DNA of 64,000 nt from an uncultured Gemmatimonadales bacterium (lineage in GTDB: Bacteria > Gemmatimonadota > Gemmatimonadetes > Gemmatimonadales > GWC2-71-9), in NCBI GenBank assembly GCA_963822925.1, contig CAWGJN010000001.1, forward strand, positions 431,490 through 495,489. The letters run 5' to 3'. The position numbers were made by a program, and so were the translations under genes. Positions within the stretch are counted from its first letter, which is position 1, and every line of letters starts with the position of its first letter. The notes below the pieces were generated by a model. It did no database searches, was not told where the DNA came from, and saw nothing but the letters and a program-made list of their open reading frames with translations. Shown piece by piece: positions 26,893 through 50,146 of the stretch.

Positions 26893-27008
26893 CAGGAACT
26901 CGGACAGTCAGGCTCCTCGCGCTGGCTGTGGGGGTATTGTAACAAACGCCAAAGTCACGGGGACGACTTGCGGTACGTACGCCCGCCACCCCGGCTCGGT
27001 TTCGTGAA

Positions 27009-30318: not shown

Positions 30319-30543
30319 ATGCCCACGTACACCTACGAGACTCTCTCCCCCACCCCGCGCCGGTTCGACGTGCGCCAGTCGTTCAGCGATGCGCCGCTCG
30401 AGCAGGATCCCGAAACGGGGGAGCCGGTACGCCGGGTGATCAGTGGTGGAGCGGCACTGCTCACCTCGAAGGAGAGCAGCAAGGTTGGTGAGCTGCCGGT
30501 CTCAGGCGGAGGATGTGGCAACAGCTGCGGCTGTGGCCACTGA
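30319..30543 (+). CDS. FmdB-family-like small protein lacking the zinc-ribbon cysteines
   Basis: MPTYTYE...FDV..SFSDAPL..DPETGEPVRRVIS follows the FmdB pattern, but both CxxC pairs are replaced. The C-terminal tail is GGGCGNSCGCGH. Confidence 0.55.
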   Translation: MPTYTYETLSPTPRRFDVRQSFSDAPLEQDPETGEPVRRVISGGAALLTSKESSKVGELPVSGGGCGNSCGCGH

Positions 30544-30565: not shown

Positions 30566-31195
30566 ATGCCTCCGAGGGCGCTCCTGGCGAGCGCCCTTCT
30601 TTTTGCCCTCGCGTGCGCACTCGACGGATGGGCATGGCAGCACCTTCGCGTGGACGACGTCTACGGCAAGGACTGGGGACGCCTCTTCCGCATCGCCGGC
30701 TTCCTCCCCACCTGGATGCTGGGGTCCGTGGCGCTCATCCTCAGCGATCGCGGCACCGGTTCACCCGCGCCACGCCGCTTCTGGTGGCGTGGCATGCTGC
30801 TCACTGTGGCGCCGCTCGTGGCAGGGATCGTGTGTGAGCTCCTGAAGGTCCTTCTCCGGCGCGAACGACCCAACCTGCACGACGGCACCTATTTCTTCCG
30901 CGGCTTCAGCGACCACCCCTGGAGCACCTCGGCGATCGGGCTGCCGAGCAGTCATACGATGGTCGCGTTCGCCGGAGCCGGCATGGCGAGCTATCTGTTT
31001 CCGCGGACCTGGCCCGCGTGGATGCTGCTGGCGGGCGGCTGCGCCTTCACCCGAGTCGCGGCGCAGGCGCATTTCCTGAGTGATGTCATGCTGGCGGGAA
31101 TTGCGGGGTTGTTCGTGGCACGGCTGGTGTGGCTCTGGCCCGGACCGTCGGGCTCACATACGCCGAACCGTCCTCGTCGCGACGGAAGGGGCTAG
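30566..31195 (+). CDS. PAP2 family phosphatase
   Basis: KVLLRRERP, PSSHT and RVAAQAHFLSDV correspond to the three PAP2 motifs. Confidence 0.85.
   Translation: MPPRALLASALLFALACALDGWAWQHLRVDDVYGKDWGRLFRIAGFLPTWMLGSVALILSDRGTGSPAPRRFWWRGMLLTVAPLVAGIVCELLKVLLRRERPNLHDGTYFFRGFSDHPWSTSAIGLPSSHTMVAFAGAGMASYLFPRTWPAWMLLAGGCAFTRVAAQAHFLSDVMLAGIAGLFVARLVWLWPGPSGSHTPNRPRRDGRG
30941..31138 (+). repeat. Copy 1 of a ~198-bp direct repeat (the PAP2 3' end); partner at 43621..43818
   Basis: Gap-free alignment at an offset of 12680. I counted 29 mismatches, about 85% identity, including a 47-bp perfect block. Confidence 0.85.
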
Positions 31196-31810
31196 CTGGC
31201 CGAGTAATCCCTCTGCTGCCTGCAAGTACTCCTCGATGTCGAAGTGCTCAGGATCGATCATTGCCTGAACTGCACAACCTTTGATGAAGCTGACTGCGAC
31301 CGCCGCCAATCCGTCGGGCGTGACGTGGGGGAAGCGCAGGGGCTCGGCCTCGAGTACTTCCCCGGCCATTGGACGGAATGCCTCCCGATACCGCGACAGC
31401 TCGCCCCGCATCTTGGTCCCGATCGCCTTGTGCCGGCCGCCCATGACCCAGAACTCGAAGAACAACCTGAGCCGCATCGGCTCCCGTGAGAGGCGGTCCA
31501 TTTCCTGTCTGAGCAGCGCGACCAGGCGCCGGAGCGGGGCTGCGACAAGCCGGATCTCCGGGCCGATGTGAAGGACCGTAGTTGTCGCAAGAAGCCAATC
31601 GAGGAGCGCGACGATGAGCCGGTCTCTCGACCTGAAGTGAAACAGCACCAAGCCAGTGCTCAGCCGCGCCTTGGCCGCAACGAGCCGTACGGTAAGGCCG
31701 TGAAGCCCCTGAGTGGCGGCAACCGCGTACGCCGCTTTGATGATCTGGTCCCTGCGGGTCGTTTCCGACGCCTTGCGTCCCGGCATGTGAAGGCCTTGGA
31801 GATCGTACAA
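31154..31810 (-). CDS. TetR family transcriptional regulator
   Basis: RRDQIIKAAYAVAATQGLHGLTVRLVAAKARLSTGLVLFHF HTH. Its 3' end overlaps the PAP2 3' end by 42 nt (convergent). Confidence 0.85.
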   Translation of the reverse strand: MYDLQGLHMPGRKASETTRRDQIIKAAYAVAATQGLHGLTVRLVAAKARLSTGLVLFHFRSRDRLIVALLDWLLATTTVLHIGPEIRLVAAPLRRLVALLRQEMDRLSREPMRLRLFFEFWVMGGRHKAIGTKMRGELSRYREAFRPMAGEVLEAEPLRFPHVTPDGLAAVAVSFIKGCAVQAMIDPEHFDIEEYLQAAEGLLGQLAPSVATRTVRRM

Positions 31811-31853
31811 GCCAGAGCCGGAGCCTCAACCCACCGGCCAGTGGACTGATTGG

Positions 31854-32243
31854 TCACTCCATCGACCTGCCTATGTCTCCCCGCTCACTCGGCCGGAAAC
31901 TCAGGTCGAACGCGAGGAATAGCGTCTTGGAAAAGGGATAGAAAAACACAGGCATGGTCAGCGCCTCAACCGGACCGACATACTGCAACTGGTCCCAGGG
32001 CGGATTCGGCCACGTCGCCATGACCACGCCAACGAGTACCGTAACAGAGAACGCTTCGGCAGCCAGGAGGTTGAACCAGACGGCGCCAACGCCATAGCCG
32101 TCCTCCCCACGGGAGAATACCAGCCCGCAGCCGGGGCACCGCGCCGTCATAGAGAGCCAGCGCGTGAAGATCGGCCCTCCGCCGCAACGAGGACAGCGAC
32201 GGCGGAGCGCGCGGTAGAGCATCATTCGCTTCGAGGGCAGCAT
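31854..32243 (-). CDS. DUF983 family membrane protein
   Basis: RCPRCGGGPIF...RCPGCGLVF double CxxC followed by two TM helices. Confidence 0.6.
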   Translation of the reverse strand: MLPSKRMMLYRALRRRCPRCGGGPIFTRWLSMTARCPGCGLVFSRGEDGYGVGAVWFNLLAAEAFSVTVLVGVVMATWPNPPWDQLQYVGPVEALTMPVFFYPFSKTLFLAFDLSFRPSERGDIGRSME

Positions 32244-32372
32244 CGTCACTCGAATCGACCGACAGGTGAGTTCACGAGATTGCACGTCATCGCGGCGCTT
32301 GGGTATCGCCCGGTTGAGTTCGGGGGCGCGCCCATGCGCTCACCGGATTGACCGAGGCCGCAATGGATTCTA

Positions 32373-32398
32373 CATTGACCAAGCGTTCAATGTCAATG
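32373..32398. promoter_or_regulatory. Inverted repeat CATTGAC-N12-GTCAATG; an extra ATTGACC lies at 32347
   Basis: Read directly. It shares CATTGAC and GCGTTCAA strings with the 43524..43578 region. Confidence 0.35.
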
Positions 32399-32470
32399 CG
32401 ATGGCACCTCGCATACGCGATTGCGAAGCGACCCTGAGACGCGATCCGCCGCCCGGCAAGGCATATCGCC

Positions 32471-32869
32471 GTGTCATCTCACGATGCGCCAGATGAACCC
32501 ACGAGCGACTCAGGCCCGCTTGGCGAACGCGAGCTTGGCGTGGAGTACTGGCGGGCCCCCGAACTCTTCCTGCTTGATGCGGTCCTGACGCTGTTCGGGG
32601 TGATGGAGGCCGCGGGGACTCGGCCGCGAGTGTTCGTGTGCGACCTGCGAGCCGTGCCCATTCTCGATGCCCACGCGTGCCGTGTTATCTCCGTGCTGCT
32701 CGGACGCTGCCGGCGGTCGCGGATGGTGCTGATCCTGAGCGGCGTCGGGCCGACCGCCCTCCGCACCCTCGGAGCCGCCGGGACGCTCGACGAGTTGGGG
32801 CCCAGGAACGTGTTTGCGCATCTGAACGACGCGATGTCGCGCGCGCGCATACTGATGAACGATGACTAG
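32471..32869 (+). CDS. Stand-alone STAS domain protein
   Basis: YWRAPELFLLDAV...VFVCDLRAVPILDAHACRVISVLL...MVLILSGVGPTALRTLGAAG resembles SulP/SpoIIAA-type STAS. Its stop overlaps the convergent NuoB-like gene by 4 nt. Confidence 0.55.
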   Translation: MSSHDAPDEPTSDSGPLGERELGVEYWRAPELFLLDAVLTLFGVMEAAGTRPRVFVCDLRAVPILDAHACRVISVLLGRCRRSRMVLILSGVGPTALRTLGAAGTLDELGPRNVFAHLNDAMSRARILMNDD

Positions 32870-33669
32870 GTAGAGGCGTCGCCGGATCTCGCGCCAGGCG
32901 CACTCTGCCCGTCCAGTTGCCCCAGGAGCCGCAGCAGGCCATCCAGTACGGTCAGCGGATGCGGCGGGCACCCCGCGATCCACAGATCTACGGGCAGGTC
33001 GGCCGGTACTCCATTTCCCACCTCCGGGCTGTCCCGAAAGGGACCGCCATTGATCGCGCACGCGCCCACCGCGATCACCAGTTTTGGTTCCGGGATCGCG
33101 TCGTAGGTGCGATACACCGCGTCCCGCATGTTCCGGCTCACCGCCCCCGTGATCACCAGGCCGTCAGCGTGCCGGGGCGACGCGACGAACTGGATGCCGA
33201 ACCGCGCCATGTCGAAGACGACGTTGCCCAGGGCCACCAGTTCCGACTCGCATCCGTTGCAGCTTCCGGCCGCGACCGAGCGCAGACGCAGCGACCGGCC
33301 GAACAGCGTTCGGATGCGTTGCCCCAGCGCCTCGACGGCGGGGAGCTCCCCCGCCTCGCTGACCAGGCCGGAGCGCTCTCGTGCCGACAGGCGCGGATCG
33401 GCCGTGAAGGTGACGGCCCCATGGCGGCAAGCTGTTGCCTCCTCGGGCGCGAACAGGCACGCGCCAATGTCGAGCGATGCCCGGCCTTCCGGTGTCACGA
33501 CGAGCAGTGTGGAGGGCATAGCTGCCTGACACTCGTGGCAGGTCTCCAGGCATCGGGCGGCATCGAGCACCGGCCTGCCGCGAAAGCGCTCCGGGAACTC
33601 CGCGGCCCCGCCGGGAAATGCCGATGTCCGGGTGCCCTGCGCAAACCGGGTGCGGAGGAAGTCAAGCAT
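32866..33669 (-). CDS. NuoB/HycG/HyfI-like small subunit with a fused, degenerate ferredoxin-like N-terminal ~100 aa
   Basis: GSCNGCE, GACAINGG and GCPPHP (all four proximal-cluster Cys are present). The N-terminus has CLETCHEC...C-x10-C. Confidence 0.85.
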   Translation of the reverse strand: MLDFLRTRFAQGTRTSAFPGGAAEFPERFRGRPVLDAARCLETCHECQAAMPSTLLVVTPEGRASLDIGACLFAPEEATACRHGAVTFTADPRLSARERSGLVSEAGELPAVEALGQRIRTLFGRSLRLRSVAAGSCNGCESELVALGNVVFDMARFGIQFVASPRHADGLVITGAVSRNMRDAVYRTYDAIPEPKLVIAVGACAINGGPFRDSPEVGNGVPADLPVDLWIAGCPPHPLTVLDGLLRLLGQLDGQSAPGARSGDAST

Positions 33670-35180
33670 TAGAGGTCATGCCCCGCGTACGACAGGTTGA
33701 AGCTCTTGTTGCACAGCGGAAAGTCCGAGATCTGGTTTCCCGGCATCGCCGCTGCCAGCGCGCTCCAGTTGTGGAACGACGGATCCACCACCTTGTGCCG
33801 GCGGATCCCCCCGGCCTCGTCGGTGATCACCACGTGCGCGACTTCCCCCCGCCAGCCTTCTTCCAGCGCCACCACCAGTTCCGCGGGCCTGAGCGCGTCG
33901 CATGGCACCTGCGCGGCGCCCTTGGGCAGCGCGCCAACTTGCTCGATCACGAACTCGAGCGAGCGCTGCACCTCCAGCCAGCGCACCAGCGTTCGCGCCA
34001 GGACGTCGCCGGCCCACGCGGTGGACACCGGAATGTGGGCGAACCGGAACACCCCGTACGGGTGGTCGTGCCGCACATCCCGCGACACCTTGCACGCTCG
34101 CGCCGCCACACCGACCAGGCCGAGCTCGAGGCACTGCTGGGGCGTTACGGCACCGACGCCTTCGAGCCGCGCCTGCACCGAGGCGTTCTTGAGCAGCAGG
34201 TGTCCCACCGGGAGCAGCTCCTCGGCCAGCACCGCCAGGCGCGCGCGCATCTCGTCCGCCATCCCGGCCGGGATGTCGAAGAGCGCGCCCCCCGGTCGGA
34301 TGAGGCCCCGTCCGTAGCGGTTGCCCGAGAGGGTCATCAGGAGGTTCAGGCACTCACCCCGCATCCGCCCGAAGTACGCCGCGGCAGGCTGGTATGCGAT
34401 GTCTCCCGCAATCGCGCCGAGATCTCCGATGTGATTGGCCAGGCGCTCCAGCTCGAGGGCGATGCCGCGGATGGTCTGCGCCCTGGGCGTCTTGCGGCTC
34501 CGGGCCAGCGCCTCGATGGCACCGCAGGCGGCGCTCGCATGCGCGATAACGGTATCGCCGGCGATCGACTCCGCGATCAGGACGGCGTCCGGCCATCGGC
34601 GCGTTTCCAGCAGACGCTCGACTCCCCGATGTTGATAGCCGAGCATGATCTCGAGGAAGAGCACCTCCTCACCGTGTGCCTGGAAGCGGAAATGCCCCGG
34701 TTCGATGATGCCCGCGTGCACCGGTCCCACGGCGACCTCGTGAACCTCGCTGCCGTGGATCTGGAAGAATGGATACTCCTCCCGCTCCGCCGTCCCCCTC
34801 GACACCTGCCGACCCGCCTCGTCGGGTGGATGCCGGCGGACCGGCTTGAGCCACGGGTGCCCCTCCGGAACGACGCCGCACTGCTCCGCGATCTCCCGCT
34901 CGAACAGATGTGCCTCCGGGCACTCGGGAGTGAGCGCCGGATACGATCCATCCACCAACGTGGTCAACGCGCCGAGTTGACCGCGCTCATCCTGCGCCAG
35001 GATGGCCACCAGTTGGATCCGGTCCGCGAAGCCGGGCATGCCGAAGAACGCGACGAGCCGCCAGCCGTCCCGCACCGCCTGGCACACCGTGTCCCGGAAG
35101 CGTGGCACCGTCTCCATGGGGAGTGCCGCGAACGGGATGGTGCGGCGGTTGCGCAGGCCCAGTCCATCGAAGGCCGTCAT
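33669..35180 (-). CDS. NuoC+NuoD / HycE / HyfG-like 'large subunit' lacking all four [NiFe] cysteine ligands
   Basis: ATG 35180 overlaps the upstream stop (ATGA). EPGHFRF...YQHRGVERL are family motifs. SIAGDTVIAH replaces R-x-C-G-x-C-x3-H, and the protein ends NLSYAGHDL in place of DPCxxCxxR. Confidence 0.85.
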   Translation of the reverse strand: MTAFDGLGLRNRRTIPFAALPMETVPRFRDTVCQAVRDGWRLVAFFGMPGFADRIQLVAILAQDERGQLGALTTLVDGSYPALTPECPEAHLFEREIAEQCGVVPEGHPWLKPVRRHPPDEAGRQVSRGTAEREEYPFFQIHGSEVHEVAVGPVHAGIIEPGHFRFQAHGEEVLFLEIMLGYQHRGVERLLETRRWPDAVLIAESIAGDTVIAHASAACGAIEALARSRKTPRAQTIRGIALELERLANHIGDLGAIAGDIAYQPAAAYFGRMRGECLNLLMTLSGNRYGRGLIRPGGALFDIPAGMADEMRARLAVLAEELLPVGHLLLKNASVQARLEGVGAVTPQQCLELGLVGVAARACKVSRDVRHDHPYGVFRFAHIPVSTAWAGDVLARTLVRWLEVQRSLEFVIEQVGALPKGAAQVPCDALRPAELVVALEEGWRGEVAHVVITDEAGGIRRHKVVDPSFHNWSALAAAMPGNQISDFPLCNKSFNLSYAGHDL

Positions 35181-36601
35181 CGCGCCCCTCCCCCGAGACC
35201 CCAGGCTGCATCGGTGAGCACCTGCTGCAGTGCTGGCGGGATGTACACCCCGAGCAGCAGGACCAGCGCCAGCAGGACGATCGGGCCCGCGACCAGGAGG
35301 ACGCTCTCTCGTACCGGCGGCACCTCGGTTACCGGCGGGTCGTAGATCACCTCCAGGACCACCGCCGCCATGCCGACGAAGATCAGTGCGAGGAACGCGA
35401 GCATCGCGACGGCCACCCACGGGTGCCCCTGCCCGATGGCCGCGTTCAGGATGGTGAATTCGCTGAGGAACAGCCCGAATGGCGGTGACCCGGTCACGGC
35501 GAAGAGTCCGAGAAGCAGCAGCACCCCTGTCACCGGGGCGCGCCGGAGAATGCCGCGCGCGGCGCCCGCATGCGATGACCCGGTCGCGAGCACGACGTTC
35601 CCGACGGCGAGAAACATCAGCCCCTTGATCAGCCCGTTGTTGACGAGGTGAAGGACCGTCCCGTACCGGCCGACGCCGCCCAGCCCCAGGCCGAGCACCA
35701 ACAGGCCCATGTGTTCCACGCTCGAGTAGGCCAGCAATCGCTTCAGGTCCGACTGGCCGATCATGAAGGCCGCCGCCACCACCAGCGACATGACGCCGAA
35801 CGCCACGAGCAGGGGCTGCACGAACGCCGCCTGTCCGGCGGCCATCGTGATCTCGGTGATGCGCGCGAGCCCGAGGAACGCGCAGCTCGTCAGCGCGCCC
35901 GCCATGAGCCCCGCGACCAGGCTGGGCGCCTCACCATAGGTATCGGGCTTCCACGAGTGCAGCGGCGCCAGTCCCATCTTGGTTCCGTAACCGACCAGGA
36001 GGAAGATGAACGCCGTCTGCAGCAGCGCCGGGTGAAGGCTGCCACTTCCGGCGATCAGGTCCTCGAGCAGGAGAGGACGCCCTGAGGTCTGCGCGGCGGC
36101 CAGGAAGAACGTGCCGAGCAGCGCCAGCGCGATCCCCACGGACGACAGCAGCAGGTACTTCCACACCGCCTCCAGCGATCGGCGGTCGTGCCGATGGTAC
36201 ACGAGGGGCGCGAGCGCGAGAGTGGTTGTCTCCATGCCCACCCACAGGAGCGCCATGTGGTGGCTCACGGCCACCAAGGTGGCCGCGGCCAGGAATGCCA
36301 GCAGGCAGCTGACGAAGACCCGCCCTCCGCGCGGGGGCTCGGTTTGCAGGAACCCCGCCGCGTACACCGCGATCACGAAGAAGAGCAGGCTCACCAGCGA
36401 GACCACGAGGAGGCCCAGCGCGTCGATCGCGAGCCATCCGCCGACTTCCGGCGCGACCGGACCGCGCCAGAGATATCCCGCCGCGCCCAGGTGCAGGACC
36501 GAGGTCACGACCAGCAGGCCGAGACGCACGCTCAGCGGCCGCACCAGGTAGGCAGCCACCGCAGCGGCGATCGGGACCAGCACCATCGGCAGGAGGATCA
36601 T
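35177..36601 (-). CDS. HyfF/NuoM-N-like antiporter-type subunit
   Basis: 474-aa polytopic protein starting MILLPMVLVPIAAAV. TGATG overlap with the upstream gene. The longer track ORF is a shadow extension. Confidence 0.8.
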   Translation of the reverse strand: MILLPMVLVPIAAAVAAYLVRPLSVRLGLLVVTSVLHLGAAGYLWRGPVAPEVGGWLAIDALGLLVVSLVSLLFFVIAVYAAGFLQTEPPRGGRVFVSCLLAFLAAATLVAVSHHMALLWVGMETTTLALAPLVYHRHDRRSLEAVWKYLLLSSVGIALALLGTFFLAAAQTSGRPLLLEDLIAGSGSLHPALLQTAFIFLLVGYGTKMGLAPLHSWKPDTYGEAPSLVAGLMAGALTSCAFLGLARITEITMAAGQAAFVQPLLVAFGVMSLVVAAAFMIGQSDLKRLLAYSSVEHMGLLVLGLGLGGVGRYGTVLHLVNNGLIKGLMFLAVGNVVLATGSSHAGAARGILRRAPVTGVLLLLGLFAVTGSPPFGLFLSEFTILNAAIGQGHPWVAVAMLAFLALIFVGMAAVVLEVIYDPPVTEVPPVRESVLLVAGPIVLLALVLLLGVYIPPALQQVLTDAAWGLGGGAR

Positions 36602-37239
36602 CAATCCTTCAACTCGGTCAATCGGGTCGAGTCCAGCGAGTCGAATGCGCGATTGATGTGGAAGACCACGATGCCCATGATGAAGATGCCGACGAAGATG
36701 TCCAGCAGGACGCCCAGCTCGACGAGGAAGGGCACGCGCTCCGCCTGGCTCAGCCCGAAGACGTAGATCCCGTTCTCGAGGATCAGGTAGCCGACCACCT
36801 GCGTCAGCGCCTTGTTCCGCGTCGTCAGCACGATGAGGCCGATCATCACCGTCGCCAGTGCGACCGGGATGAGGAGGCCGCTCTCCGATTCCGGCAGGGG
36901 AATGCGCTGGGCAATGCCGAACGACAGGGCCACCACGATCGTCCCCAGCAGGAGCGACCCGGAGAATCCGATCAGGGGTTCGATCTCCCGGCGTACGGCC
37001 GCCTCGCGGATGGCCCAGGAGAGGAAGGTCGGCAGGAGGATCGCCTTCACCAGCAGCGTGCCGACCGCGAGCCCGATGATGTGCAGCGACCATCCCGGGT
37101 GCAGCGCAACGGGCAGCGCTGCCAGCAGCGCTCCCTGAATCGCGGTGGCGCGAATGGCCGAGCTCAACCGCGTGGTCCCCAACACCCAGAAATTGGTGAG
37201 GACCACGCCGAGGAGGAGCAGCTCATGCAGGTCTGACAT
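36601..37239 (-). CDS. HyfE-like membrane subunit
   Basis: 212 aa. The TRNKALTQVVGYLILENGIYVFG motif is typical of hydrogenase-4 component E. Confidence 0.75.
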   Translation of the reverse strand: MSDLHELLLLGVVLTNFWVLGTTRLSSAIRATAIQGALLAALPVALHPGWSLHIIGLAVGTLLVKAILLPTFLSWAIREAAVRREIEPLIGFSGSLLLGTIVVALSFGIAQRIPLPESESGLLIPVALATVMIGLIVLTTRNKALTQVVGYLILENGIYVFGLSQAERVPFLVELGVLLDIFVGIFIMGIVVFHINRAFDSLDSTRLTELKD

Positions 37240-37242
37240 GAT

Positions 37243-38154
37243 TCACCGCAGCAGGAGGATCACGCCGACGACGGCCAGGGCACCGGCCGCCACGAGGAAC
37301 TGGGGAAGCCGGTTCATCCGCAGTCGCGCCATGCTTGCTTCGACGATGCCGACGCCAACCGCCACTGCCACGAGTCCGCCGAGCAGGATCAGCGCCGCCA
37401 GCGGGGGCGACACCAGTGCGCGCGGCACCACGAGGCTCACCACCAGCGCGCCGAAGAGCGCGAGCTTGAGGGCGCTGCCGAACAGGATCATGGCGAGCTC
37501 CGGCCCGCTGTGATCGAGCACGATCACCTCGTGGATCATCGTGAGTTCGAGATGGGTCCCGGGATCGTCTACCGGCACCCGGGACGTCTCCGCGAGCGCC
37601 AGCATGAACAGGGCGACGGCCGTGAGGGCGAGCGATGGCAGGGTCAGGACCCAGACCGCCGCGAGCCGCTCTCCCAGCATGCCGGCAAGCGACAGTTCAC
37701 CGGTGGCGAGGACCAGCACCGTGAAGCAGAGGAACAGCACCGGCTCGGCGAAGGCGGAGACCGTGACTTCCCGGCTCGCCCCCATCCCCTCGAAGCTCGA
37801 CCCCGTATCCAGACCGGCGAGCACGAGCGCGAAGCGGCCCAGTGCCAGTAATCCGGCGAACGCAACGAGATCTCCGGAGAAGCTGAGCAGTGCCGAATGA
37901 CCGTCCAGCGGGAGGAGCGCAGCGGCGACGAGCACCGTCGCGAGGACCACGATCGGCCCGATGCGGAACACCGCCGTCGTAGTGCCGCTGTAGACGACAT
38001 TCTTCCGGAGCAGCTTCGCCAGGTCCCGGTACAGCTGCAGCACGGGTGCTCCCCGGCGCCCCGTCAGAAACGCCCGGGTGCGCGTCGCGATACCGGGCAA
38101 GGCGGGAGCCACGGCCAGGACCATCACCAGCGTCACGAAAGGCCAGGGCGTCAT
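37243..38154 (-). CDS. HycD/HyfC (NuoH)-like membrane subunit
   Basis: RRGAPVLQLYRDLAKLLRK and AETSRVPVDDPGTHLELTMIHEVIVLDHSG. ATGA overlap upstream. Confidence 0.85.
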   Translation of the reverse strand: MTPWPFVTLVMVLAVAPALPGIATRTRAFLTGRRGAPVLQLYRDLAKLLRKNVVYSGTTTAVFRIGPIVVLATVLVAAALLPLDGHSALLSFSGDLVAFAGLLALGRFALVLAGLDTGSSFEGMGASREVTVSAFAEPVLFLCFTVLVLATGELSLAGMLGERLAAVWVLTLPSLALTAVALFMLALAETSRVPVDDPGTHLELTMIHEVIVLDHSGPELAMILFGSALKLALFGALVVSLVVPRALVSPPLAALILLGGLVAVAVGVGIVEASMARLRMNRLPQFLVAAGALAVVGVILLLR

Positions 38155-40124
38155 GCTCCGCCCTGCCACTTCATCAGGTGATAAAGCAGAAGAAGCAGCG
38201 TGGAGACGACGGCCAGGAGGTACCATCGGATGCGCGCGCCCGGCCATGCTCGCAGGTGCCGGCTCCAGTCATCCAGTGCCCGCCACGCCGGCAGTACCAC
38301 CTGGTCCTGAACCAGGTCCACCGGGTGAGAGTGAAAGCTCGTCGGCTTTCGGGCCTCCCACACTGCGGCGAGCGGTCCGAATGCGGACAGCAGCGGCGCC
38401 GCAAAGGACGACGCGGTGTACTGCATTCTCGGGGTCAGCCCCGGCCCCGCGCACGCCCACGTCGCGCCGGCGCGGACCTCCCCCGCTCGGCCCAGGTACC
38501 CGCGGAAGAGCAGCACCGCGCCCCCAACCAGGATGAGTGCCGCGGCCACCGTGGAAACGCCCGTCGCCCCGGCGGCCCACGTCTGCACCCCGGTGCTTCC
38601 GTCCATCATTCGTGCCACGCTTGCGGCGACCAGCCGGACCGGCGCCAGCACCAGCGTCGGCACGAGGCCGATGACTGCGCAGAAGCCCGCGAGGACCAGC
38701 GCCGGCACCACCATGCCCGCCGTCGGTTCGCTCGCAGCGAGGCCATCGCCGAGGGGCGCGCGCGGCAGCCCGAGGAAGAGCACGCCATCGAGCTTGCTGA
38801 AGCACGCCAGCGCGAGCCCGCCGATCAGCGCCAGTCCCGCCGCGCCGAACACCACGAACCGCATCGCCTCCGTTGACTCCGCGGCCGTGAAGAGCGCGCC
38901 GAACACGACCCACTCGCTCACGAAGCCGTTGAGCGGCGGCAATCCCACGATGGCCACCGACCCGATGCCGAATGCCACCGCCGTCAGCGGCATCCGGCGC
39001 GCGAGACCGCCCAGCCGGTCGATCTCCCGCGTGCCCGTCGCCCGCACCACCGCCCCCGCGCCCAGGAACAGCAGACTCTTGAACAACGCATGGTTCAGCG
39101 TGTGCAGCAGTGCCCCCATGAACCCCAGCAGCGCCACCACCGGATGGCCATAGACCATCCCCAGGACCCCGACGCCCATGCCCAGCAGGATGATTCCGAT
39201 GTTCTCGACGCTGTGGTAGGCAAGCAGCCGCTTGAGATCGTGCTGGCCCAGCGCCCACAGCACGCCCAGCACACCCGACACCAGTCCCAGCCCGAACAGG
39301 GTCCACCCGAACCAGGCCGGCGGGGAGCCCAGGAGGTTGAGCACCCGGAGCAGCCCGTAGATCCCCATCTTGAGCATGACGCCGGATAGCACCGCGGAGA
39401 CGTGCGACGGGGCCGCGGCGTGCGCGCCCGGCAACCAGAAGTGCAGCGGGACGGCGCCGGCCTTGATGCCGAATCCCACGAGCGCAAAGACCAGCGCGAG
39501 CGTGCGCCCCGTGCTCGCGGCCTGGCTTCCGGCGGCGAGGTCGGCGAAGCTGCGGCCTTCGGCATGCGCGCTCAGGGCGGCAAACATCCCGAAGAGCGCG
39601 AGGAGGCTCGTATGGGTGAGCACGATGTAGACCAGGCCCGCGCGACGAACCTCGCCCCGCTCACTCTCGAACACGACGAGCAGGTACGCGCTCACCGCCA
39701 TCACTTCCCAGGAGGCGAGGAACGGCATCATCGCCTGCGACGTGACCACCCCGACCAGGGCCACCAGGAGCAGGGCGAACAGGCCGTGCACCACGTGGAC
39801 ACTGCGATGCGCGCGCTCCGGCGCCAGGTACGCCGTCCCGAACACTCCGGCGGCGGCCCCGACAGGGAGAATGACCAACACGAACCAGGCCGAGAGCGGA
39901 TCGAGACCAAAGCTCCACGGACCACCGGGCAGTGACCCCGCAAGTGCGGCGGTCGGCACCGGTGCGCCACCCAGCACACGGATCGCTGGAATTACTCCCA
40001 GGACGCACCCGGCGAGGAGCAACACGGCGTAGAGTCGGTCGGCTGCGGTGCTCCATCGCCGAAAGAGCACCGCGCAGACGGCGCCTGCCAGAATGCAGCC
40101 CGCGCCCCAGATGAGCCCGCTCAC
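38151..40124 (-). CDS. HyfB/HycC (NuoL)-like antiporter-type subunit, copy 2
   Basis: 657 aa. WLPGAHAAAPSHVSAVLSG core and a C-terminal TWACAGPGLTPRMQYTASSFAAPL extension. GTGA overlap upstream. Confidence 0.85.
   Translation of the reverse strand: MSGLIWGAGCILAGAVCAVLFRRWSTAADRLYAVLLLAGCVLGVIPAIRVLGGAPVPTAALAGSLPGGPWSFGLDPLSAWFVLVILPVGAAAGVFGTAYLAPERAHRSVHVVHGLFALLLVALVGVVTSQAMMPFLASWEVMAVSAYLLVVFESERGEVRRAGLVYIVLTHTSLLALFGMFAALSAHAEGRSFADLAAGSQAASTGRTLALVFALVGFGIKAGAVPLHFWLPGAHAAAPSHVSAVLSGVMLKMGIYGLLRVLNLLGSPPAWFGWTLFGLGLVSGVLGVLWALGQHDLKRLLAYHSVENIGIILLGMGVGVLGMVYGHPVVALLGFMGALLHTLNHALFKSLLFLGAGAVVRATGTREIDRLGGLARRMPLTAVAFGIGSVAIVGLPPLNGFVSEWVVFGALFTAAESTEAMRFVVFGAAGLALIGGLALACFSKLDGVLFLGLPRAPLGDGLAASEPTAGMVVPALVLAGFCAVIGLVPTLVLAPVRLVAASVARMMDGSTGVQTWAAGATGVSTVAAALILVGGAVLLFRGYLGRAGEVRAGATWACAGPGLTPRMQYTASSFAAPLLSAFGPLAAVWEARKPTSFHSHPVDLVQDQVVLPAWRALDDWSRHLRAWPGARIRWYLLAVVSTLLLLLYHLMKWQGGA
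38905..39455. repeat. Near-identical segment shared with 40872..41422 (offset 1967)
   Basis: 213 bp with 1 mismatch (38905..39117), a diverged ~110 bp, then ~149 bp with 1 mismatch (39231..39379). Read directly. Confidence 0.85.
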
Positions 40125-42100
40125 GGCTGCCGCACGATCGCGGCGAAGAGCGCGCCCAGGAGAAGCACCACCGTGAGCACCATGTACTGGAGGTACCGCG
40201 TGATCCGCCCCTGCTGCAGCGGGCGCAGCACCTCGGTGAGGGCGCGGACTCGCTGCCAGACGGGAGCGGCCACCCTGGCCAGGACCAGGTCGCCCGGGTC
40301 GGTGCTGAGCGAGGTCGCATCACGCTTGACCCGAGGTGCCGCGACGCTGCCGAACGCGCGCAGCACCGGCGCGCTGAACGACGAGGCGGTGTACTGCATC
40401 CGGCCGTCCGGACGACCATAGGCGCATCCCCACGTCATCCCGATGACCGGCTCTTGCAATCGGCCGGCGCGCAGACGCAGATACCACAGCAGCACCAGCA
40501 GCATTGCCAGCAGTGCACCGAGGGTGCCAAGGAAAGGGAGGGCGCTCGTAACAGCAGACCCGGCCTCGGTGATTCCCTCGGTGCCCCCCGCTACAATCGT
40601 CCCGACGACGATAGCAGCGGGCCGCACGGCAATCGCAGGGAAGGCGCCGAGCCCGACGCACAATACCGCCAGCGCAAGCATGGGAACCACGAGGCCCGGT
40701 TCATCCCGCACCTCGGCCTCCGGTGCACGCGGCCGGCCCAGGAACACCCCGCCAGTCACCCGGCTGAAGCACGCCAGGGCAAGCCCGCCGATCAGGCCGA
40801 GGCCGGCAATGCCGAGAGCCACGAAGGCCGGCAGCATCCGGTTCTGCACCCCGCGCAAGAGACCTTGCGCTACGACCCACTCACTCACGAAGCCGTTGAG
40901 CGGCGGCAATCCCACGATGGCCACCGACCCGATGCCGAATGCCACCGCCGTCAGCGGCATCCGGCGCGCGAGACCGCCCAGCCGGTCGATCTCCCGCGTG
41001 CCCGTCGCCCGCACCACCGCCCCCGCGCCCAGGAACAGCAGACTCTTGAACAACGCATGGTTCAGCGTGTGCAGCAGTGCCCCCGTGAACCCGAGCAGCG
41101 CCACCACTGGGTGGTCGTAGGCCACTCCCACGACCCCCAGCCCCATGGCCAGCACGATGATCCCGATGTTCTCGACGCTGCTGTAGGCGAGAACACGCTT
41201 GAGATCGTGCTGGCCCAGCGCCCAGAGCACGCCCAGCACACCCGACACCAGTCCCAGCCCGAACAGGGTCCACCCGAACCAGGCCGGCGGGGAGCCCAGG
41301 AGGTTGAGCACCCGGAGCAGCCCGTAGATCCCCATCTTGAGCATGATCCCGGACAGCACCGCGGACACGTGAGAGGGAGCCGCCGCGTGCGCGCCCGGCA
41401 GCCAGAAATGCATGGGCACCACACCCGCCTTCATCCCGAACCCGACCAGTGCGAGCAGTAGTACGAGCCCACCTCCCCACGGAATCGCGGGTGCCGCCGC
41501 GGCCAATGCGTCGAAGGTGAGGTCGGGAGTGCTGCGCCCCCAAACCAGGAACATGGCGATCAGCGCGAGTGTTCCGGTATGCGTCAGCACGAGGTAGATC
41601 AGGCCGGCGCGACGGACCGCTTCGCGGTCCCCATCGAACATGATGAGGAAGTACGCGCTCAGCGCCATGATCTCCCATGCCAGCAGGAAGAGCACGGCGG
41701 CATGCGCCACGACGACCATCACCATCGCGGCGAGCAGAAGCGCAAACACCGCATGCACCCACGCGACCTGCCGGTGCGCGCGCTCCTGCGCGAGGTAGCT
41801 CGTGCCGTAGCTGGTGGCTGCCGCCCCGGCGACGCCGAGCACGACCAGGAACCACCCCGCGAGGGGATCGACCAGAATGGCCCACGGCCCCCCGGGCACG
41901 CGCGGCTCAACCGACAGTGCGATGGGCGATCCACCAAGCAGGACCGCCCCGCCCGCCCCGGCGCAGGCGAGCAGGCCCGGAAGTACGAGCATCTCGTGGA
42001 TGAGATCAGCGAGCCGGGGAGCCCGCGCGAACACCAGCGACGCGACGCCGCCCAGGAGTACCAGCCCGACACCACTGATCAGGAGGGCGGCCGGATTCAT
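40121..42100 (-). CDS. HyfB/HycC (NuoL)-like antiporter-type subunit, copy 1
   Basis: 659 aa with the same core and a TWGCAYGRPDGRMQYTASSFSAPV extension. ATGA overlap with the upstream HTH-EIIA gene. Confidence 0.85.
   Translation of the reverse strand: MNPAALLISGVGLVLLGGVASLVFARAPRLADLIHEMLVLPGLLACAGAGGAVLLGGSPIALSVEPRVPGGPWAILVDPLAGWFLVVLGVAGAAATSYGTSYLAQERAHRQVAWVHAVFALLLAAMVMVVVAHAAVLFLLAWEIMALSAYFLIMFDGDREAVRRAGLIYLVLTHTGTLALIAMFLVWGRSTPDLTFDALAAAAPAIPWGGGLVLLLALVGFGMKAGVVPMHFWLPGAHAAAPSHVSAVLSGIMLKMGIYGLLRVLNLLGSPPAWFGWTLFGLGLVSGVLGVLWALGQHDLKRVLAYSSVENIGIIVLAMGLGVVGVAYDHPVVALLGFTGALLHTLNHALFKSLLFLGAGAVVRATGTREIDRLGGLARRMPLTAVAFGIGSVAIVGLPPLNGFVSEWVVAQGLLRGVQNRMLPAFVALGIAGLGLIGGLALACFSRVTGGVFLGRPRAPEAEVRDEPGLVVPMLALAVLCVGLGAFPAIAVRPAAIVVGTIVAGGTEGITEAGSAVTSALPFLGTLGALLAMLLVLLWYLRLRAGRLQEPVIGMTWGCAYGRPDGRMQYTASSFSAPVLRAFGSVAAPRVKRDATSLSTDPGDLVLARVAAPVWQRVRALTEVLRPLQQGRITRYLQYMVLTVVLLLGALFAAIVRQP
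40872..41422. repeat. Partner of the 38905..39455 repeat
   Basis: See the partner feature. Confidence 0.85.
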
Positions 42101-42804
42101 TGCCCGGGGCGCTTGTTGACCGCGAACGACCCGGTCGTCTGCACCTCGAGGTCGCGGATGCGCTCCAGCAGTTGTTCCGTCGAGGCACGATCCTTCAGCA
42201 ACCGCCGCAATTCCGGGTTGCGCAGCGCGAACGCGAGCTGGGCGAGAATCCGGAGGTGCGAGGGAACCGTGGCGCTCACCACGAGGAAGACCGCGTGCAC
42301 CGGCAGGCCATCCATCGCGCCGAATTCGACCGGCCGGCGCAACAGGCAGAGGGTGACGAACGGCTGATCCACGTGAAGCAGGATTGGATTGCGCACGTGC
42401 GGGATGGCGATGCCATCGCCGATGGCGGTCGACCCCATCGCCTCGCGCGCTTCGAGCACGGCCAGCAGGAAGTCACGGTCCACCTCGGCCGACAAGGGCA
42501 GCCGCGTCACGATGGCGGCCAGTACCGTGTTCTTGTCGTCCCCCTCCACATCCCGATGGATGCCGCCCGTCTCGAGCAATCGCGAGAGCGGCGGCACCTC
42601 CTCCGGAGACCGGCGGGCCTCCTCCAACAGACCCCGGGATGCGGGAACCCCGTGCTCCACCGCCCACTGCCACACCTCGATCGCATTCAGGTGCAGGCGT
42701 TCGTTCAGGCGGTGCACCGGGAGGTCGCGCTCCTTGATCCACCGGCGGAGCGTGGACTCGCCCACGTTGAGGTAGGCTGCGGCCTGTCGAATGGTGATCT
42801 GCAT
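42097..42804 (-). CDS. HTH (excisionase/MerR-like) plus PTS EIIA type-2 (PtsN-like) fusion protein
   Basis: N-terminal ITIRQAAAYLNVGESTLRRWIKERDLPVHR. EIIA core GSTAIGDGIAIPHVR with the phosphorylatable His. Confidence 0.75.
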   Translation of the reverse strand: MQITIRQAAAYLNVGESTLRRWIKERDLPVHRLNERLHLNAIEVWQWAVEHGVPASRGLLEEARRSPEEVPPLSRLLETGGIHRDVEGDDKNTVLAAIVTRLPLSAEVDRDFLLAVLEAREAMGSTAIGDGIAIPHVRNPILLHVDQPFVTLCLLRRPVEFGAMDGLPVHAVFLVVSATVPSHLRILAQLAFALRNPELRRLLKDRASTEQLLERIRDLEVQTTGSFAVNKRPGQ

Positions 42805-42808
42805 GAGA

Positions 42809-43522
42809 TTATCGGCCTGTTGCCCCGGCGTCGCCGAGCAGTACGTGCTCGGTGTCGCGCACCAGGGTGACGACGGCAGCCGCCGCGGTCGCGCTCCGCA
42901 CGCCCTCCAGGAACCCGGGATGGCGACAGAGGCTCGCCACTCGCGCGAGCAGGATCAGGTGGCGACGGGGATCGCGCGCCAGCAGCAGGAACAGGAGATC
43001 GGTCGGGATGGCGCCAAACGCGTCGAAGCCCACCGGCGCCGGGAGCCGGCCGATCGCGAGCAGGTCACCGCGGCGCAACGCGCGACCCTCCCACCGTGCC
43101 GTATGGAGCAGCGCGGCGCCACACTCCGTGGCCGTGCTCGCCAGCTCCTCCCGCTCCCACACCCGCCGCACGACCTCGTCGACGTCGACCGGCTCGGGAA
43201 ACGTGACCTTCCGGATCAGGCTCTCGATCATCGCACGCCGTGACCCGGCCTGGATCGGGAGAAGCGCGTTCTCCGGCGCGAGCGCCTCACTCAAGGAGCA
43301 CCCGGACGTCCGCCATTCGGCTTCCATCGCCCGCAGGTGAGGCGGGCTGATGCGCTCCATCCGGAGGTCCATCCAGTAGTCGACGACGGCTCGCCGGAAC
43401 CGCCAGTGCCCGCCGACCTTGAAACCCGGGAGTTCGCCCCGCCCGAGCAGCCGGTACACTGTGCGCTCCGAGAGCTGGAGATGCTCCGCCAGCTGCTTCA
43501 GCGTCAGGACGTCCGCCTGCAT
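42809..43522 (-). CDS. HTH (excisionase/MerR-like) plus degenerate EIIA-like fusion protein
   Basis: N-terminal LTLKQLAEHLQLSERTVYRLLGRGELPGFKVGGHWRF. The C-terminal half parallels the neighbouring protein, with GAALLHTAR in place of GIAIPH. Confidence 0.65.
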   Translation of the reverse strand: MQADVLTLKQLAEHLQLSERTVYRLLGRGELPGFKVGGHWRFRRAVVDYWMDLRMERISPPHLRAMEAEWRTSGCSLSEALAPENALLPIQAGSRRAMIESLIRKVTFPEPVDVDEVVRRVWEREELASTATECGAALLHTARWEGRALRRGDLLAIGRLPAPVGFDAFGAIPTDLLFLLLARDPRRHLILLARVASLCRHPGFLEGVRSATAAAAVVTLVRDTEHVLLGDAGATGR

Positions 43523-43533
43523 GCATTGACCGT

Positions 43534-43551
43534 GTTGAACGCGCGTTCAAC
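43534..43551. promoter_or_regulatory. Perfect 18-bp palindrome GTTGAACGCGCGTTCAAC, 12 nt upstream of the operon's first start codon
   Basis: Read directly. It is flanked by CATTGAC (43524, 43566) and TTGACTGTCAA (43568..43578; TTGACA on the operon strand). Confidence 0.45.
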
Positions 43552-43610
43552 GTATCGGGACATGACATTGACTGTCAACCGCTGCCACCGGTGACGGGCG
43601 CTCGCCCGGA

Positions 43611-43863
43611 GGCCGTAGGCCTGCCGAGCAGCCATACCATGGTGGCCTTCGCCGGAGCGGGCATGGGAAGCTTTCTCTTTCCGCGGACCTGGCCCGCATG
43701 GATGTCGCTCGCGGCAGGGTGTGCGTTCACCCGCGGCGCGGCGCAGGCGCATTTCCTGAGTGATGTCATGCTGGCGGGAATTGGAGGGCTCTTCGTAGCA
43801 CGGCTGGCATGGCACTGGGGCGCTTGGCTATCCCGCCGGCCGACGGCCAAAGAGGATTATTGA
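43611..43863 (+). pseudogene. 3' fragment of a second PAP2 phosphatase gene (motifs 2 and 3 only)
   Basis: GLPSSHTMVAFAGAGMGSFLFPRTWPAWMSLAAGCAFTRGAAQAHFLSDVMLAGIGGLFVARL is about 88% identical to residues of the 30566..31195 protein. The N-terminal two thirds are absent. Confidence 0.8.
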
Positions 43864-43888
43864 CAGAACAACTATACAACTATATAGT
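43860..43888 (+). promoter_or_regulatory. Sigma-70-type promoter TTGACA-N17-TATAGT in an AT-rich island
   Basis: TTGACA 43860..43865, a 17-nt spacer, TATAGT 43883..43888. The 10-bp palindrome ACTATATAGT (43878..43887) overlaps the -10. Confidence 0.5.
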
Positions 43889-43895
43889 AATGCAT

Positions 43896-45272
43896 ATGAG
43901 GACACCTCCCAGCGACGACCGGCAGCCCCGGACCAGCCTCGCTCTCGCGGCCCTGACGCTCTTGTCCGTGTCGAGCCTGGCCGCCCAGCAGCCGCTGACC
44001 CTGGCCGACGCCTTCCGCCGCGCCGACTCGGCCGCGTTCGCCAATCGCATCGCCGCCGGCGATGCCCGCATCAGCAGCGCCGGGGCCACCGCGACGCTTC
44101 AGGGGATCCTCCCCACGGTCCGTGCCGTGGCGGGCTACGTCCGGTCCAACGACCCGCTCGCTGCCTTCGGGTTCACCCTGCAGCAGCGCGCCGTGACGCT
44201 TGAGTCCTTCAACCCGGCGAGCCTCAACTACCCCGCCCCTGTCACCAACTGGAATGGCGGGTTCGTCGCTGAAGTCCCTCTCATCAATGTCGACGCCTGG
44301 TACGGCCGCGCCGCCGCCTCGAGCGCCGCCGCCGCCGCGACTGCGAGTACCCAGTGGACTCGCGAGGTTACCCGCGTCAACATAGTTCGTGCCTACTTCG
44401 GCGCTGTCCTCGCCGGCGAGCAGGCCACGACCCTCGTCAGCTCCGCGGAAGCCGCCCATGCCCACGTGCGCCAGGCGGAATCGATGGTCGCCAACGGCAT
44501 GGCCACGCGCTCCGACGCCCTGCTCGCCTCGGTGCAGGCCGGCCAGGTCGACGCGCAACTCATCGGCGCAACGGGCGAGGCGCGCATTGCCCGCCATCGC
44601 CTGGCCGTCGTCCTTGGCCAGCCAGGAGACACCAGCTTCACCCTGCCCGATTCGCTGCCGTTGGCCGCAACCATTCGCGCCCTGCCTCCCGACTCCGGCC
44701 CTGACTCCGCCAGCGCACGCCTCGACGTGACGGCCGCCCGGCTCGGCGTCGAAGCCGCGCAGCGCGACGTGCGCCGTGCCAACGCGAAGTACCTCCCCCG
44801 CGTCAACGGCTTCGGTCGCTACGACTGGAACAGCCCCGACCAGCCATTTGGCGGTCAGGGCAGTTACACCGTTGGCATCATGGCATCGTGGTCACCCTTC
44901 TCCGGCGCGTCCGAGATCGCGGCTCGGCAGGAGGCGCGCGGCCGTGCTGAGGCCGCGAGCGCCGGGGCCGAAGCCGCCGCGGCGACCGCCAATCTCGAGC
45001 GGCAAGCCACCGCCACCCAGCGTGAGGTAGCCCTCGTCCGGCTCGACATCGCCGAGACCGCGGTGGTGCAGGCCGCGGAGGCACATCGCATTGTCGCCCG
45101 GAAGTACGCCGGCGGGCTCGCGACGGTCGCAGAGCTCCTCGCGGCCGCCGCGGTCGAGACCCAGGCGCGCCTCGCACTCTCTGAATCCCGGTACCAGGTC
45201 ATCGTTTCCGACGCTGCCGCCCGGCAGGCGACCGGGCGCGACCTGATGGCCCTCACTGCGCTGGAGAACTGA
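43896..45272 (+). CDS. TolC-family outer-membrane efflux protein
   Basis: Signal peptide LALAALTLLSVSSLAAQQPLTLADAF. Two-repeat OEP pattern. An alternative ATG lies at 43890. Confidence 0.8.
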   Translation: MRTPPSDDRQPRTSLALAALTLLSVSSLAAQQPLTLADAFRRADSAAFANRIAAGDARISSAGATATLQGILPTVRAVAGYVRSNDPLAAFGFTLQQRAVTLESFNPASLNYPAPVTNWNGGFVAEVPLINVDAWYGRAAASSAAAAATASTQWTREVTRVNIVRAYFGAVLAGEQATTLVSSAEAAHAHVRQAESMVANGMATRSDALLASVQAGQVDAQLIGATGEARIARHRLAVVLGQPGDTSFTLPDSLPLAATIRALPPDSGPDSASARLDVTAARLGVEAAQRDVRRANAKYLPRVNGFGRYDWNSPDQPFGGQGSYTVGIMASWSPFSGASEIAARQEARGRAEAASAGAEAAAATANLERQATATQREVALVRLDIAETAVVQAAEAHRIVARKYAGGLATVAELLAAAAVETQARLALSESRYQVIVSDAAARQATGRDLMALTALEN

Positions 45273-45273
45273 C

Positions 45274-46293: not shown

Positions 46294-46296
46294 GCC

Positions 46297-49200: not shown

Positions 49201-49454
49201 TGCTGGTGGATTTCATCCAGCTCGCCGAGGAGCGCGGCCGGCCGCTGCGCGAAGCGGTGCTGGAGGCCGGGGCGGTACGGTTCCGCCCGATCGCGCTGAC
49301 CGCGGCGGCGGTGGTCATTGGCGGGCTGGTGATGGTGCTGGACCCGATCTTCCAGGGCCTCGCGGTGGCCCTGATCAGTGGCGCGATCGTCGCCACGCTG
49401 CTCACGATGGTCGTGGTCCCGCTGCTCTACTGGGAGATGGGCCGCGAGCGCTGA
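46297..49454 (+). pseudogene. RND efflux permease interrupted by two +1 frame changes (~48266 and ~48412)
   Basis: Phase 1 reads to ...RRQSHAIAV. Phase 2 reads SVRPAVDSIARAFGANAKIAEIPPGPPVLSTLVAEVYAADDSTRLVAA. Phase 0 reads EHVKAILLATPGVVDVDW... through to the natural C-terminus at 49454. Confidence 0.8.
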
Positions 49455-49490
49455 TGTGTACTCGAGGGACTGATTGAAGGGAGACAGGCC

Positions 49491-49697
49491 ATGTGCAGTG
49501 AAATGCTTATCCGGCGTATCGCCGGGCTGTTCGTACTGGGGTCGCTGGCACTGGGAGCGTGGGTGAACCCGGCGTGGTTGCTCTTCACCGCCTTCGTCGG
49601 GCTCAACCTCTTTCAGTCGAGCCTGACCGGGTTCTGCCCCCTCGAGCGCATGTTGGGGCGCGCGCGGTTGTTCGGCTGCACCCCGCGGAAGGCCTGA
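49491..49697 (+). CDS. DUF2892 (YgaP C-terminal-like) small membrane protein
   Basis: RRIAGLFVLGSLALG....FVGLNLFQSSLTGFCPLERML pattern. Confidence 0.7.
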   Translation: MCSEMLIRRIAGLFVLGSLALGAWVNPAWLLFTAFVGLNLFQSSLTGFCPLERMLGRARLFGCTPRKA

Positions 49698-49699
49698 CC

Positions 49700-50026: not shown

Positions 50027-50146
50027 CTTCACTGCTCCTCTGCTCTATGACTATACGGTAATATAATGCAAGTGGCCGGAAACTTCATGCACCGGCGTGG
50101 TCCGCGCTGCCATATTTCACGTCAACTTCAATCTCGGGGACCCGTC

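Follow-up and report, generated by a model that had tools for sequence, protein, structure and literature searches.

The region examined here lies in a 64,000-nt stretch (the window) of a contig from an uncultured Gemmatimonadales bacterium (CAWGJN010000001.1, positions 431,490 to 495,489), in which an operon for an energy-converting hydrogenase-related (Ehr) complex is bracketed by two copies of the 3' end of a PAP2 phosphatase gene. The left copy belongs to an intact gene (30566-31195, plus strand, 209 aa) that matches the Pfam PAP2 profile with an E-value of 4e-19. The right copy is a 3' fragment on the same strand (43611-43863), contained in an open reading frame (ORF) running from 43591 to 43863, which matches the same profile with an E-value of 1.4e-11 over positions 50-127 of 130. 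A repeat search of the window joins the two as a direct repeat of 208 nt at 85% identity without gaps (30931-31138, corresponding to PAP2 codons ~122-191, against 43611-43818), and their ungapped alignment contains a run of 47 nt without a single mismatch (31057-31103 in the left copy, 43737-43783 in the right). The original prediction, made from the letters of the window, had described an intact gene on the left and a 3'-only fragment on the right in the same orientation, which Pfam and tblastn both bear out, and a gap-free repeat of about 85% identity with a 47-bp perfect core, which we recovered with a length of 208 nt.

Members of the PAP2 superfamily are recognized by three motifs, C1 (KxxxxxxRP), C2 (PSGH-like) and C3 (SRxxxxxHxxxD-like). 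All three catalytic motifs are present in the intact gene (C1 KVLLRRERP, C2 PSSH and C3 TRVAAQAHFLSD). An exact look-up of its protein returned no record. The fragment, whose open frame comprises 90 codons, has C2 and C3 and lacks C1, and therefore does not specify a complete enzyme. The peptides encoded by the two copies are identical at 58 of 66 positions (88%) with a dN/dS (ratio of nonsynonymous to synonymous divergence) of 0.13, in keeping, for the most part, with the earlier proposal that both copies evolved as coding sequence. That the fragment is a full-length second PAP2 gene read in the wrong frame is ruled out, as only 88 nt separate it from the start codon of the divergent minus-strand gene at 42809-43522 and as tblastn of the window detects PAP2 homology only at the intact gene and the fragment.

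Between the two copies lie a TetR-family regulator gene (31154-31810, minus strand; Pfam TetR_N and TetR_C_6), which overlaps the PAP2 stop codon convergently, a DUF983 gene (31854-32285, minus strand), a STAS-domain gene (32471-32869, plus strand; Pfam STAS) and nine minus-strand genes that make up the operon. This cargo is as originally listed, the nine genes consisting of seven Ehr genes and, at the head of the operon, two genes that each fuse an HTH_17 to a PTS_EIIA_2 domain by Pfam (42097-42804 and 42809-43522). The upstream region of the operon spans 43523-43588.

The PAP2 orthologues that we retrieved from Gemmatimonadales assemblies (75-87% identity) reveal three versions of this locus. 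In the first, which we call empty, the order PD40-Zn-ribbon-PAP2 is followed directly by a TolC-RND operon (L003, L017, L018, L020 and L040). In the second, PAP2 is followed directly by an S46 peptidase gene, the RND operon being absent as well (L004, L019 and L041). In the third, the occupied version, PAP2 is followed by TetR and the Ehr operon (L002, L021, the single 867-kb contig L001/L014, hereafter M1, which represents the closest other species on the left flank, and also W2, a second strain described below). The empty site anticipated by the original prediction, a PAP2 gene running directly into the TolC operon, is thus found in five genomes, and relatives without the Ehr operon carry a single PAP2 copy each rather than both; one copy only is in fact present in every empty or occupied relative except W2. 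Presence or absence of the Ehr-containing block is a real polymorphism.

The borders of the polymorphic block can be placed by comparison with both versions. Against the empty-site genomes, homology of the window ends at ~31134-31140, where the variable tail of PAP2 begins, and resumes at the promoter of the TolC operon. From ~31141 onwards, the last ~55 nt of the intact PAP2 gene form a tail of the type that overlaps TetR, which is common to the other occupied genomes and homologous to that of L001. The fragment for its part sits exactly where the PAP2 3' end is found in empty-site genomes, abutting the conserved TolC promoter, with its stop codon overlapping the -35 hexamer. In M1, the cargo occupies this same site, in the order PAP2-TetR-Ehr-EIIA-50-nt spacer-TolC promoter, and both the left junction (the overlap of the PAP2 tail with TetR) and the Ehr upstream region up to 43588 are in common with the window. 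Neither alignment nor tblastn detected a PAP2 fragment in M1. The notion that its 50-nt spacer is a decayed PAP2 remnant was rejected, 145 of 500 shuffled sequences scoring as high in local alignment. A further 22, more distant Ehr operons from genomes and metagenomes, which lie in other contexts, have no adjoining PAP2 segment either. As M1 has the cargo without the fragment and the other Ehr operons lack a PAP2 piece, the original insertion would have left no duplication. In the window, the homology with M1 extends as far as 43588 and that with PAP2 begins at ~43611; the 22 nt of filler in between (43589-43610) are similar to neither the M1 spacer nor PAP2.

Integrase-borne islands typically insert at the 3' end of a gene for a tRNA, a tmRNA or a protein, an end that is thereby duplicated as attL and attR. 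The PAP2 locus resembles them in its topology of intact gene, cargo and directly oriented 3' remnant, in the existence of empty sites in relatives and in the ancestral position of the remnant beside the TolC promoter. The original prediction saw in this topology a site-specific insertion into the PAP2 3' end, by which an island carrying a replacement end would have displaced the original one and later lost its integrase. Several observations speak against such an island. Pfam reveals no integrase in any of the cargo genes or in the larger ORFs of the window that were examined, as had been noted beforehand, and no transposase among the genes examined; a tRNA scan of the window found no tRNA gene. 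The suggestion that the island is now degraded, with a remnant of its integrase left behind, finds no room in the cargo, where the largest intergenic gap is 185 nt. Instead of a short identical att core, the repeat comprises 208 nt at 85% identity, and its perfect core is limited to one strain. The same cargo occupies the same site in another species, M1, without a repeat, and none of the 22 other Ehr operons is accompanied by a PAP2 segment. As for the HTH_17 domains, which might recall an excisionase (Xis), they are fused to PTS_EIIA_2 in every such Ehr operon and resemble regulators of the operon rather than Xis. A site-specific island is on these grounds very unlikely, and the age of the fragment, discussed below, also counts against it.

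Further constraints come from a second strain, W2. A search with the fragment peptide recovered two short "proteins" on two contigs of a single sample (L039 for the left part of the locus and L038 for the right part), which are 98-99.5% identical to the window and have the same architecture. As the W2 assemblies are independent, this architecture is therefore no assembly artefact. Across 43480-43643, a segment including the junction, W2 does not differ from the window at any position, and the junction therefore arose once. The 47-nt core, on the other hand, is not perfect in W2: the W2 fragment reads AGCGACGTG where both intact copies and the window fragment read AGTGATGTC, and the three mismatches are synonymous, each carrying a state common in orthologues. 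With W2 retaining the orthologue state, the core of the window is therefore secondary, and these comparisons indicate a later, strain-specific gene-conversion tract rather than an att core.

Conversion between paralogues is apparently active elsewhere in the operon. The two NuoL-like proteins are only ~55% identical overall, yet their genes share 300 nt at 94% identity (38905-39204 and 40872-41171), as well as a second stretch (38755-38858 and 40722-40825). The similarity is specific to the window strain, and ~93 substitutions distinguishing W2 from the window fall exactly within 40548-41504, in NuoL2. This looks like a conversion of NuoL2 by NuoL1 in the window strain. This would probably also account for the break of the W2 assembly within the operon.

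The fragment also appears to be young. Between the intact copy and the fragment, the synonymous divergence (dS) is 0.54 and the nonsynonymous divergence (dN) 0.068, where a fragment that had evolved neutrally ever since the divergence of the copies would be expected to show a dN of ~0.3. When changes are polarised with seven orthologues, 18 fall on the branch of the fragment (11 synonymous, 7 not) and 6 on that of the intact copy, and most amino-acid differences are specific to the fragment, at residues that are invariant or nearly so in the orthologues (six such replacements at conserved residues were counted). The pattern fits a young pseudogene, derived from a constrained gene that was truncated recently. 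Recent internal duplication of the resident gene was ruled out, the copies differing by ~19% outside the 47-nt core, which is the level seen between orthologues of different species. Between the window and W2, the fragment differs by ~6%, which is close to the synonymous rate of the genes next to it, and the W2 copy has a frame-breaking indel, which together amount to the behaviour of a pseudogene. The flanks, by comparison, have a dS of 0.52-0.76 against M1, and a fragment dating from a shared original insertion should consequently be far more decayed. By parsimony, that insertion predates the split of the window lineage from M1; judged by its substitutions, the fragment appears too little decayed to be as old.

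These data bear on two further explanations. Should the fragment be what is left of an old full-length PAP2 paralogue upstream of the TolC operon, its 5' half having been deleted, the divergence of two copies under purifying selection and the position of the fragment against the TolC promoter would follow naturally. Two PAP2 genes are not found in any relative, however, exactly one being present in all but W2; the database contains no separate paralogue clade, the fragment falling inside a single orthologue group; and M1 has nothing but its 50-nt spacer at that position. We regard such a paralogue as highly improbable. The chance that the fragment is a functional mini-gene or a regulatory element under selection seems slighter again. 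Its frame is still open in the window, and the overall dN/dS against the intact copy is low. Motif C1 is missing, however, nothing resembling a Shine-Dalgarno sequence can be seen ahead of the GTG codon, and the sole promoter-like site in 43400-44000 is that of TolC, downstream of the fragment. Further evidence against maintenance is the set of six replacements at conserved residues, the near-neutral rate and broken frame seen in the comparison with W2, and the absence of the fragment from M1.

The surroundings of the fragment have a mosaic ancestry. The TolC-HlyD tract that adjoins it (44128-45900) is 85-89% identical to the empty-site genome L020 and 75-85% identical to M1, and the TolC promoter is 91% identical to that of L020, whereas the left flank and the S46 gene are closer to M1. 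The discordant ancestry covers TolC and most of HlyD (43896-45900, plus strand; TolC itself at 43896-45272), and near 45.9 kb it switches from L020-like to equidistant or M1-like. No clear switch was seen inside PAP2 when the window was compared with its relatives. Between the window and W2, the background of 1-3 substitutions per 500 nt is interrupted by dense patches at 30706-31035 (PAP2), 40548-41504 (NuoL2) and 43644-45850 (the fragment, TolC and HlyD). Such patchiness is typical of imported recombination tracts, and the population recombines freely at the PAP2-TolC locus. Further dense patches between the two strains are found at 23000-23499 (63 substitutions), 27000-27999 (29) and 46500-46999 (23).

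Taken with the age and the position of the fragment, this mosaic leads us to propose that the fragment is the scar of a recombination event between the occupied and empty versions of the locus in soil Gemmatimonadales, of the homology-facilitated illegitimate type. We consider this explanation probable, with some reservation; while the occupied haplotype without fragment (that of M1) and the empty haplotype both exist among relatives, the mechanism and direction of the exchange are what we infer. On its first entry, the Ehr block would have been placed at the variable C-terminal tail of PAP2 and would have duplicated nothing, giving the form seen in M1. At a later time, in the common ancestor of the window strain and W2, DNA of one haplotype would have met a chromosome of the other and recombined with it; an ordinary homologous crossover would have resolved one end, and the other would have been joined illegitimately at 43589-43611, where 22 nt of filler are found. 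By this exchange, the final ~40% of a PAP2 orthologue, functional until recently, would have been stranded between the Ehr/EIIA upstream region and the TolC promoter. The fragment would since have decayed neutrally, and in the window strain the intact copy would have overwritten a short stretch of it, producing the 47-nt identical core. No machinery encoded by an element would have been required, the block moving between related lineages through flanking homology.

The exchange could have run in either of two mirror-image directions, which fit equally well and take two events each. In version (a), an occupied chromosome would have imported the 3' part of PAP2 together with TolC and HlyD from an empty-site donor, the right crossover lying near 45.9 kb and the left end being joined just past the Ehr upstream region; this version accounts for the discordant TolC-HlyD tract in one step. 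In version (b), a chromosome that had reverted to the empty state would have re-acquired the segment from the PAP2 3' part and TetR through Ehr and EIIA from an occupied donor, by an exchange anchored in PAP2 whose right end was joined inside the resident PAP2 gene at codon ~121. Version (b) is the topology of the original prediction minus the integrase.

Homology-facilitated illegitimate recombination (HFIR) is known to leave orphan gene 3' ends; these have been described at Rhs, contact-dependent inhibition (CDI) and type VI secretion system (T6SS) effector loci, and HFIR itself has been obtained experimentally in Acinetobacter, Streptococcus pneumoniae, Pseudomonas stutzeri and E. coli (PMC5361080, PMC3240628). 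The PAP2 locus would share with such loci the anchoring of incoming DNA by homology on one side and an illegitimate join on the other, the lack of an integrase, the survival of a displaced resident 3' end downstream of the new material and the presence of alternative modules at the slot in related strains. Unlike them, it involves a PAP2 phosphatase rather than a polymorphic toxin and a single fragment rather than an array, its neighbouring module is a respiratory-type operon of 12.5 kb, and the case is known from sequence alone.

A number of points weigh against a recombination scar. The parental haplotypes were not recovered, there being no full-length PAP2 gene with the tail of the fragment and no close empty-site strain of the same species among the sequences retrieved; a donor search with the fragment peptide returned only the sister strain W2 and ordinary orthologues, and a metagenome scan with EIIA2 as query gave nothing closer than 68%. 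The fragment is nearest to the resident intact copy (86-87.5%) and not to L020 (78-80%). With the neighbouring TolC being L020-like and the fragment not, version (a) needs an unsampled donor. The fragment is otherwise about equally far from all orthologues (74-82%), and at 192 nt this comparison is uninformative on direction. Version (b) in turn needs an earlier loss of the cargo, as well as a donor in which the TetR gene and the PAP2 3' end, but not the Ehr genes, had diverged from M1 to the level of the flanks. The 22-nt filler is unexplained, microhomology at the junction being something that can be judged only against the parental sequences. Imports from empty-site donors with a crossover inside the fragment could moreover "refresh" it and make it look younger than its junction. 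As the main explanation, an old fragment refreshed by TolC imports was rejected, the leftmost part of the fragment, which would then be the oldest, not being more decayed than the rest. Finally, all of these deductions draw on ~200 nt of repeat and on metagenome-assembled genomes.

The same topology could also be reached without an integrase by a Campbell-type event, in which a circularised molecule running from PAP2 codon 121 to its stop codon and on through TetR and Ehr to the EIIA upstream region would have integrated into an empty-site chromosome by a single RecA-type crossover in the PAP2 3' region, making both PAP2 copies chimeric. Such an event gives exactly the arrangement observed and accounts for the orthologue-level divergence between the copies. 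It also calls for a stretch of perfect identity for the crossover, but the perfect core arose secondarily and is confined to the window strain. An additional step of circularisation would be needed, the cargo would have to have been lost beforehand in a clade of which every known member is occupied, and the discordant TolC-HlyD tract would be left unexplained. We hold a Campbell-type integration to be unlikely.

Under the recombination scar that we prefer, the fragment is one of the usual residues of gene exchange among related bacteria and does not represent a new kind of system. The footprint of intact gene, cargo and 3' remnant does not by itself indicate an island driven by an integrase; at this locus it would mark recombination among the alternative forms that a single chromosomal slot takes in uncultured soil Gemmatimonadales, and the perfect core sometimes seen in such repeats can stem from later gene conversion. 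The locus would also provide a worked example of accessory respiratory-type operons, those for Ehr complexes, being gained, lost and exchanged by homology alone. The slot itself, from PAP2 to the S46 peptidase, can be recognized as a variable region with nested insertions, holding nothing, the RND operon, or the Ehr and RND operons together. Elements of it also occur in other arrangements: L012 (10001-18692) has a degraded Ehr operon beside S46 in the opposite orientation, and in L025 (1227-9232) the Ehr operon is accompanied by an RND operon, ArsR and a multicopper oxidase next to it.

Once the fragment has been accounted for, the observation of greatest interest seems to be that synonymous divergence is consistently low in the Ehr block, which hints at a recent spread of the operon among related lineages. 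Against M1, the Ehr genes have a dS of 0.16-0.32, compared with 0.54 for TetR and 0.52-0.76 for PAP2 and all flanking genes (13 flanking genes). Against W2, the corresponding values are 0.004-0.014 for the Ehr genes and 0.011-0.17 for the flanks. Synonymous divergence of the block is thus 2-5 times below that of the flanks both between species and between strains. Codon bias was rejected as the cause, the effective number of codons (Nc) and the GC content at third codon positions (GC3) of the Ehr genes being no more biased than those of the flanks. The pattern suggests recent exchange, or a sweep, of the block among related lineages. More tentatively, the block from the NuoB-like gene through the EIIA genes might be a cassette that is favoured by positive selection and moves without an integrase, related Gemmatimonadales lineages exchanging it time and again by way of the homology flanking the PAP2/TolC slot, in a gene-specific sweep. 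This is a possibility that we would not put above the level of a working idea; if it were true, the low dS of the Ehr genes would be explained and the PAP2 fragment would be one visible accident of this traffic.

Ehr complexes are relatives of group 4 [NiFe] hydrogenases and of complex I (PMC6349859). From its 3' end, the operon of the window comprises genes for NuoB-like (32866-33669), NuoC/D-like (33669-~35180, in an ORF open to 35420), antiporter-like (35177-~36604), NuoJ/K-like (36601-37239), NuoH-like (37243-38247) and two NuoL-like subunits (38151-40124 and 40121-42100), all on the minus strand and assigned by Pfam (Oxidored_q6, Complex1_49kDa/30kDa, NADHdh and three Proton_antipo_M genes); start codons of the Ehr genes are approximate, and gene lengths were compared with those of L001. 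Known Ehr complexes likewise combine NuoB-like and NuoC/D-like subunits with a NuoH-like subunit and several antiporter-like subunits of the Mrp/NuoL type, and likewise have a large subunit without the CxxC motif that provides the Ni-Fe ligands. The NuoC/D-like protein of the window lacks the CxxC pair, its cysteines being at positions 71, 113, 167, 181, 299, 357, 430, 443, 507 and 570. By its predicted subunits, the operon fits the published definition of Ehr (PMC6349859).

The Gemmatimonadales version differs from known Ehr complexes in that it is always headed by two HTH_17-PTS_EIIA_2 genes, which were present in every related Ehr operon retrieved (22 related loci, L005-L014 and L022-L034). 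This pair of paralogues, combining an "excisionase-type" helix-turn-helix with PTS_EIIA_2, appears to be a conserved regulatory combination that is unusual for a complex of the respiratory type. Upstream of the operon lie a perfect 18-nt palindrome, GTTGAACGCGCGTTCAAC (43534-43551), and a second site, TTGACTGTCAA (43568-43578); both are conserved in M1 and identical in W2, and are candidate operator sites. The EIIA2 gene of M1 (L014, 10001-10306) has suffered an internal deletion that leaves residues ~9-61 and 191-237.

The GC content is 0.63-0.71 inside the cargo and 0.64-0.72 outside it. The segment from TetR through the antiporter-like gene (31154-36850) has a lower GC3 (0.74-0.81, against 0.85-0.90 in the flanks) and a weaker codon bias, its Nc of 38-49 being higher than in the flanks; for the remaining operon genes and the flanks together, GC3 is 0.83-0.93 and Nc 31-38. 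Within this segment, the DUF983 and STAS genes form a piece of ~1.1 kb (31811-32888) between TetR and the NuoB-like gene that is absent from M1 and L021. The DUF983 gene of W2 lacks 139 nt (32014-32152 of the window; L039 11031/11032). A distant metagenome contig has a DUF983 gene beside the EIIA end of an Ehr operon (L026, 104-457), which hints at a functional link.

The flanking genes were likewise assigned by Pfam. To the left of PAP2 are a PD40 propeller gene (28.8-30.3 kb) and a Zn-ribbon gene (30319-30543), both on the plus strand. To the right of the fragment, a strong promoter-like site of the TolC operon (TTGACA-17-TATAGT, 43860-43888, plus strand, 11/12 matches), which is kept 3' of PAP2 in empty-site genomes and was aligned across L020, L017, L003 and L014, precedes TolC, HlyD and AcrB (43896-49454, plus strand), followed by YgaP-like and ArsR genes (49455-50044, on the plus and minus strands) and the S46 peptidase gene (50051-52255, plus strand). 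Relative to the intact 1051-aa AcrB of W2, the AcrB gene of the window (46297-49454) contains two single-base insertions 150 nt apart, at 48263 and 48413, which shift its frame twice; the insertions are either sequencing errors or mean that this strain carries the RND pump as a pseudogene.

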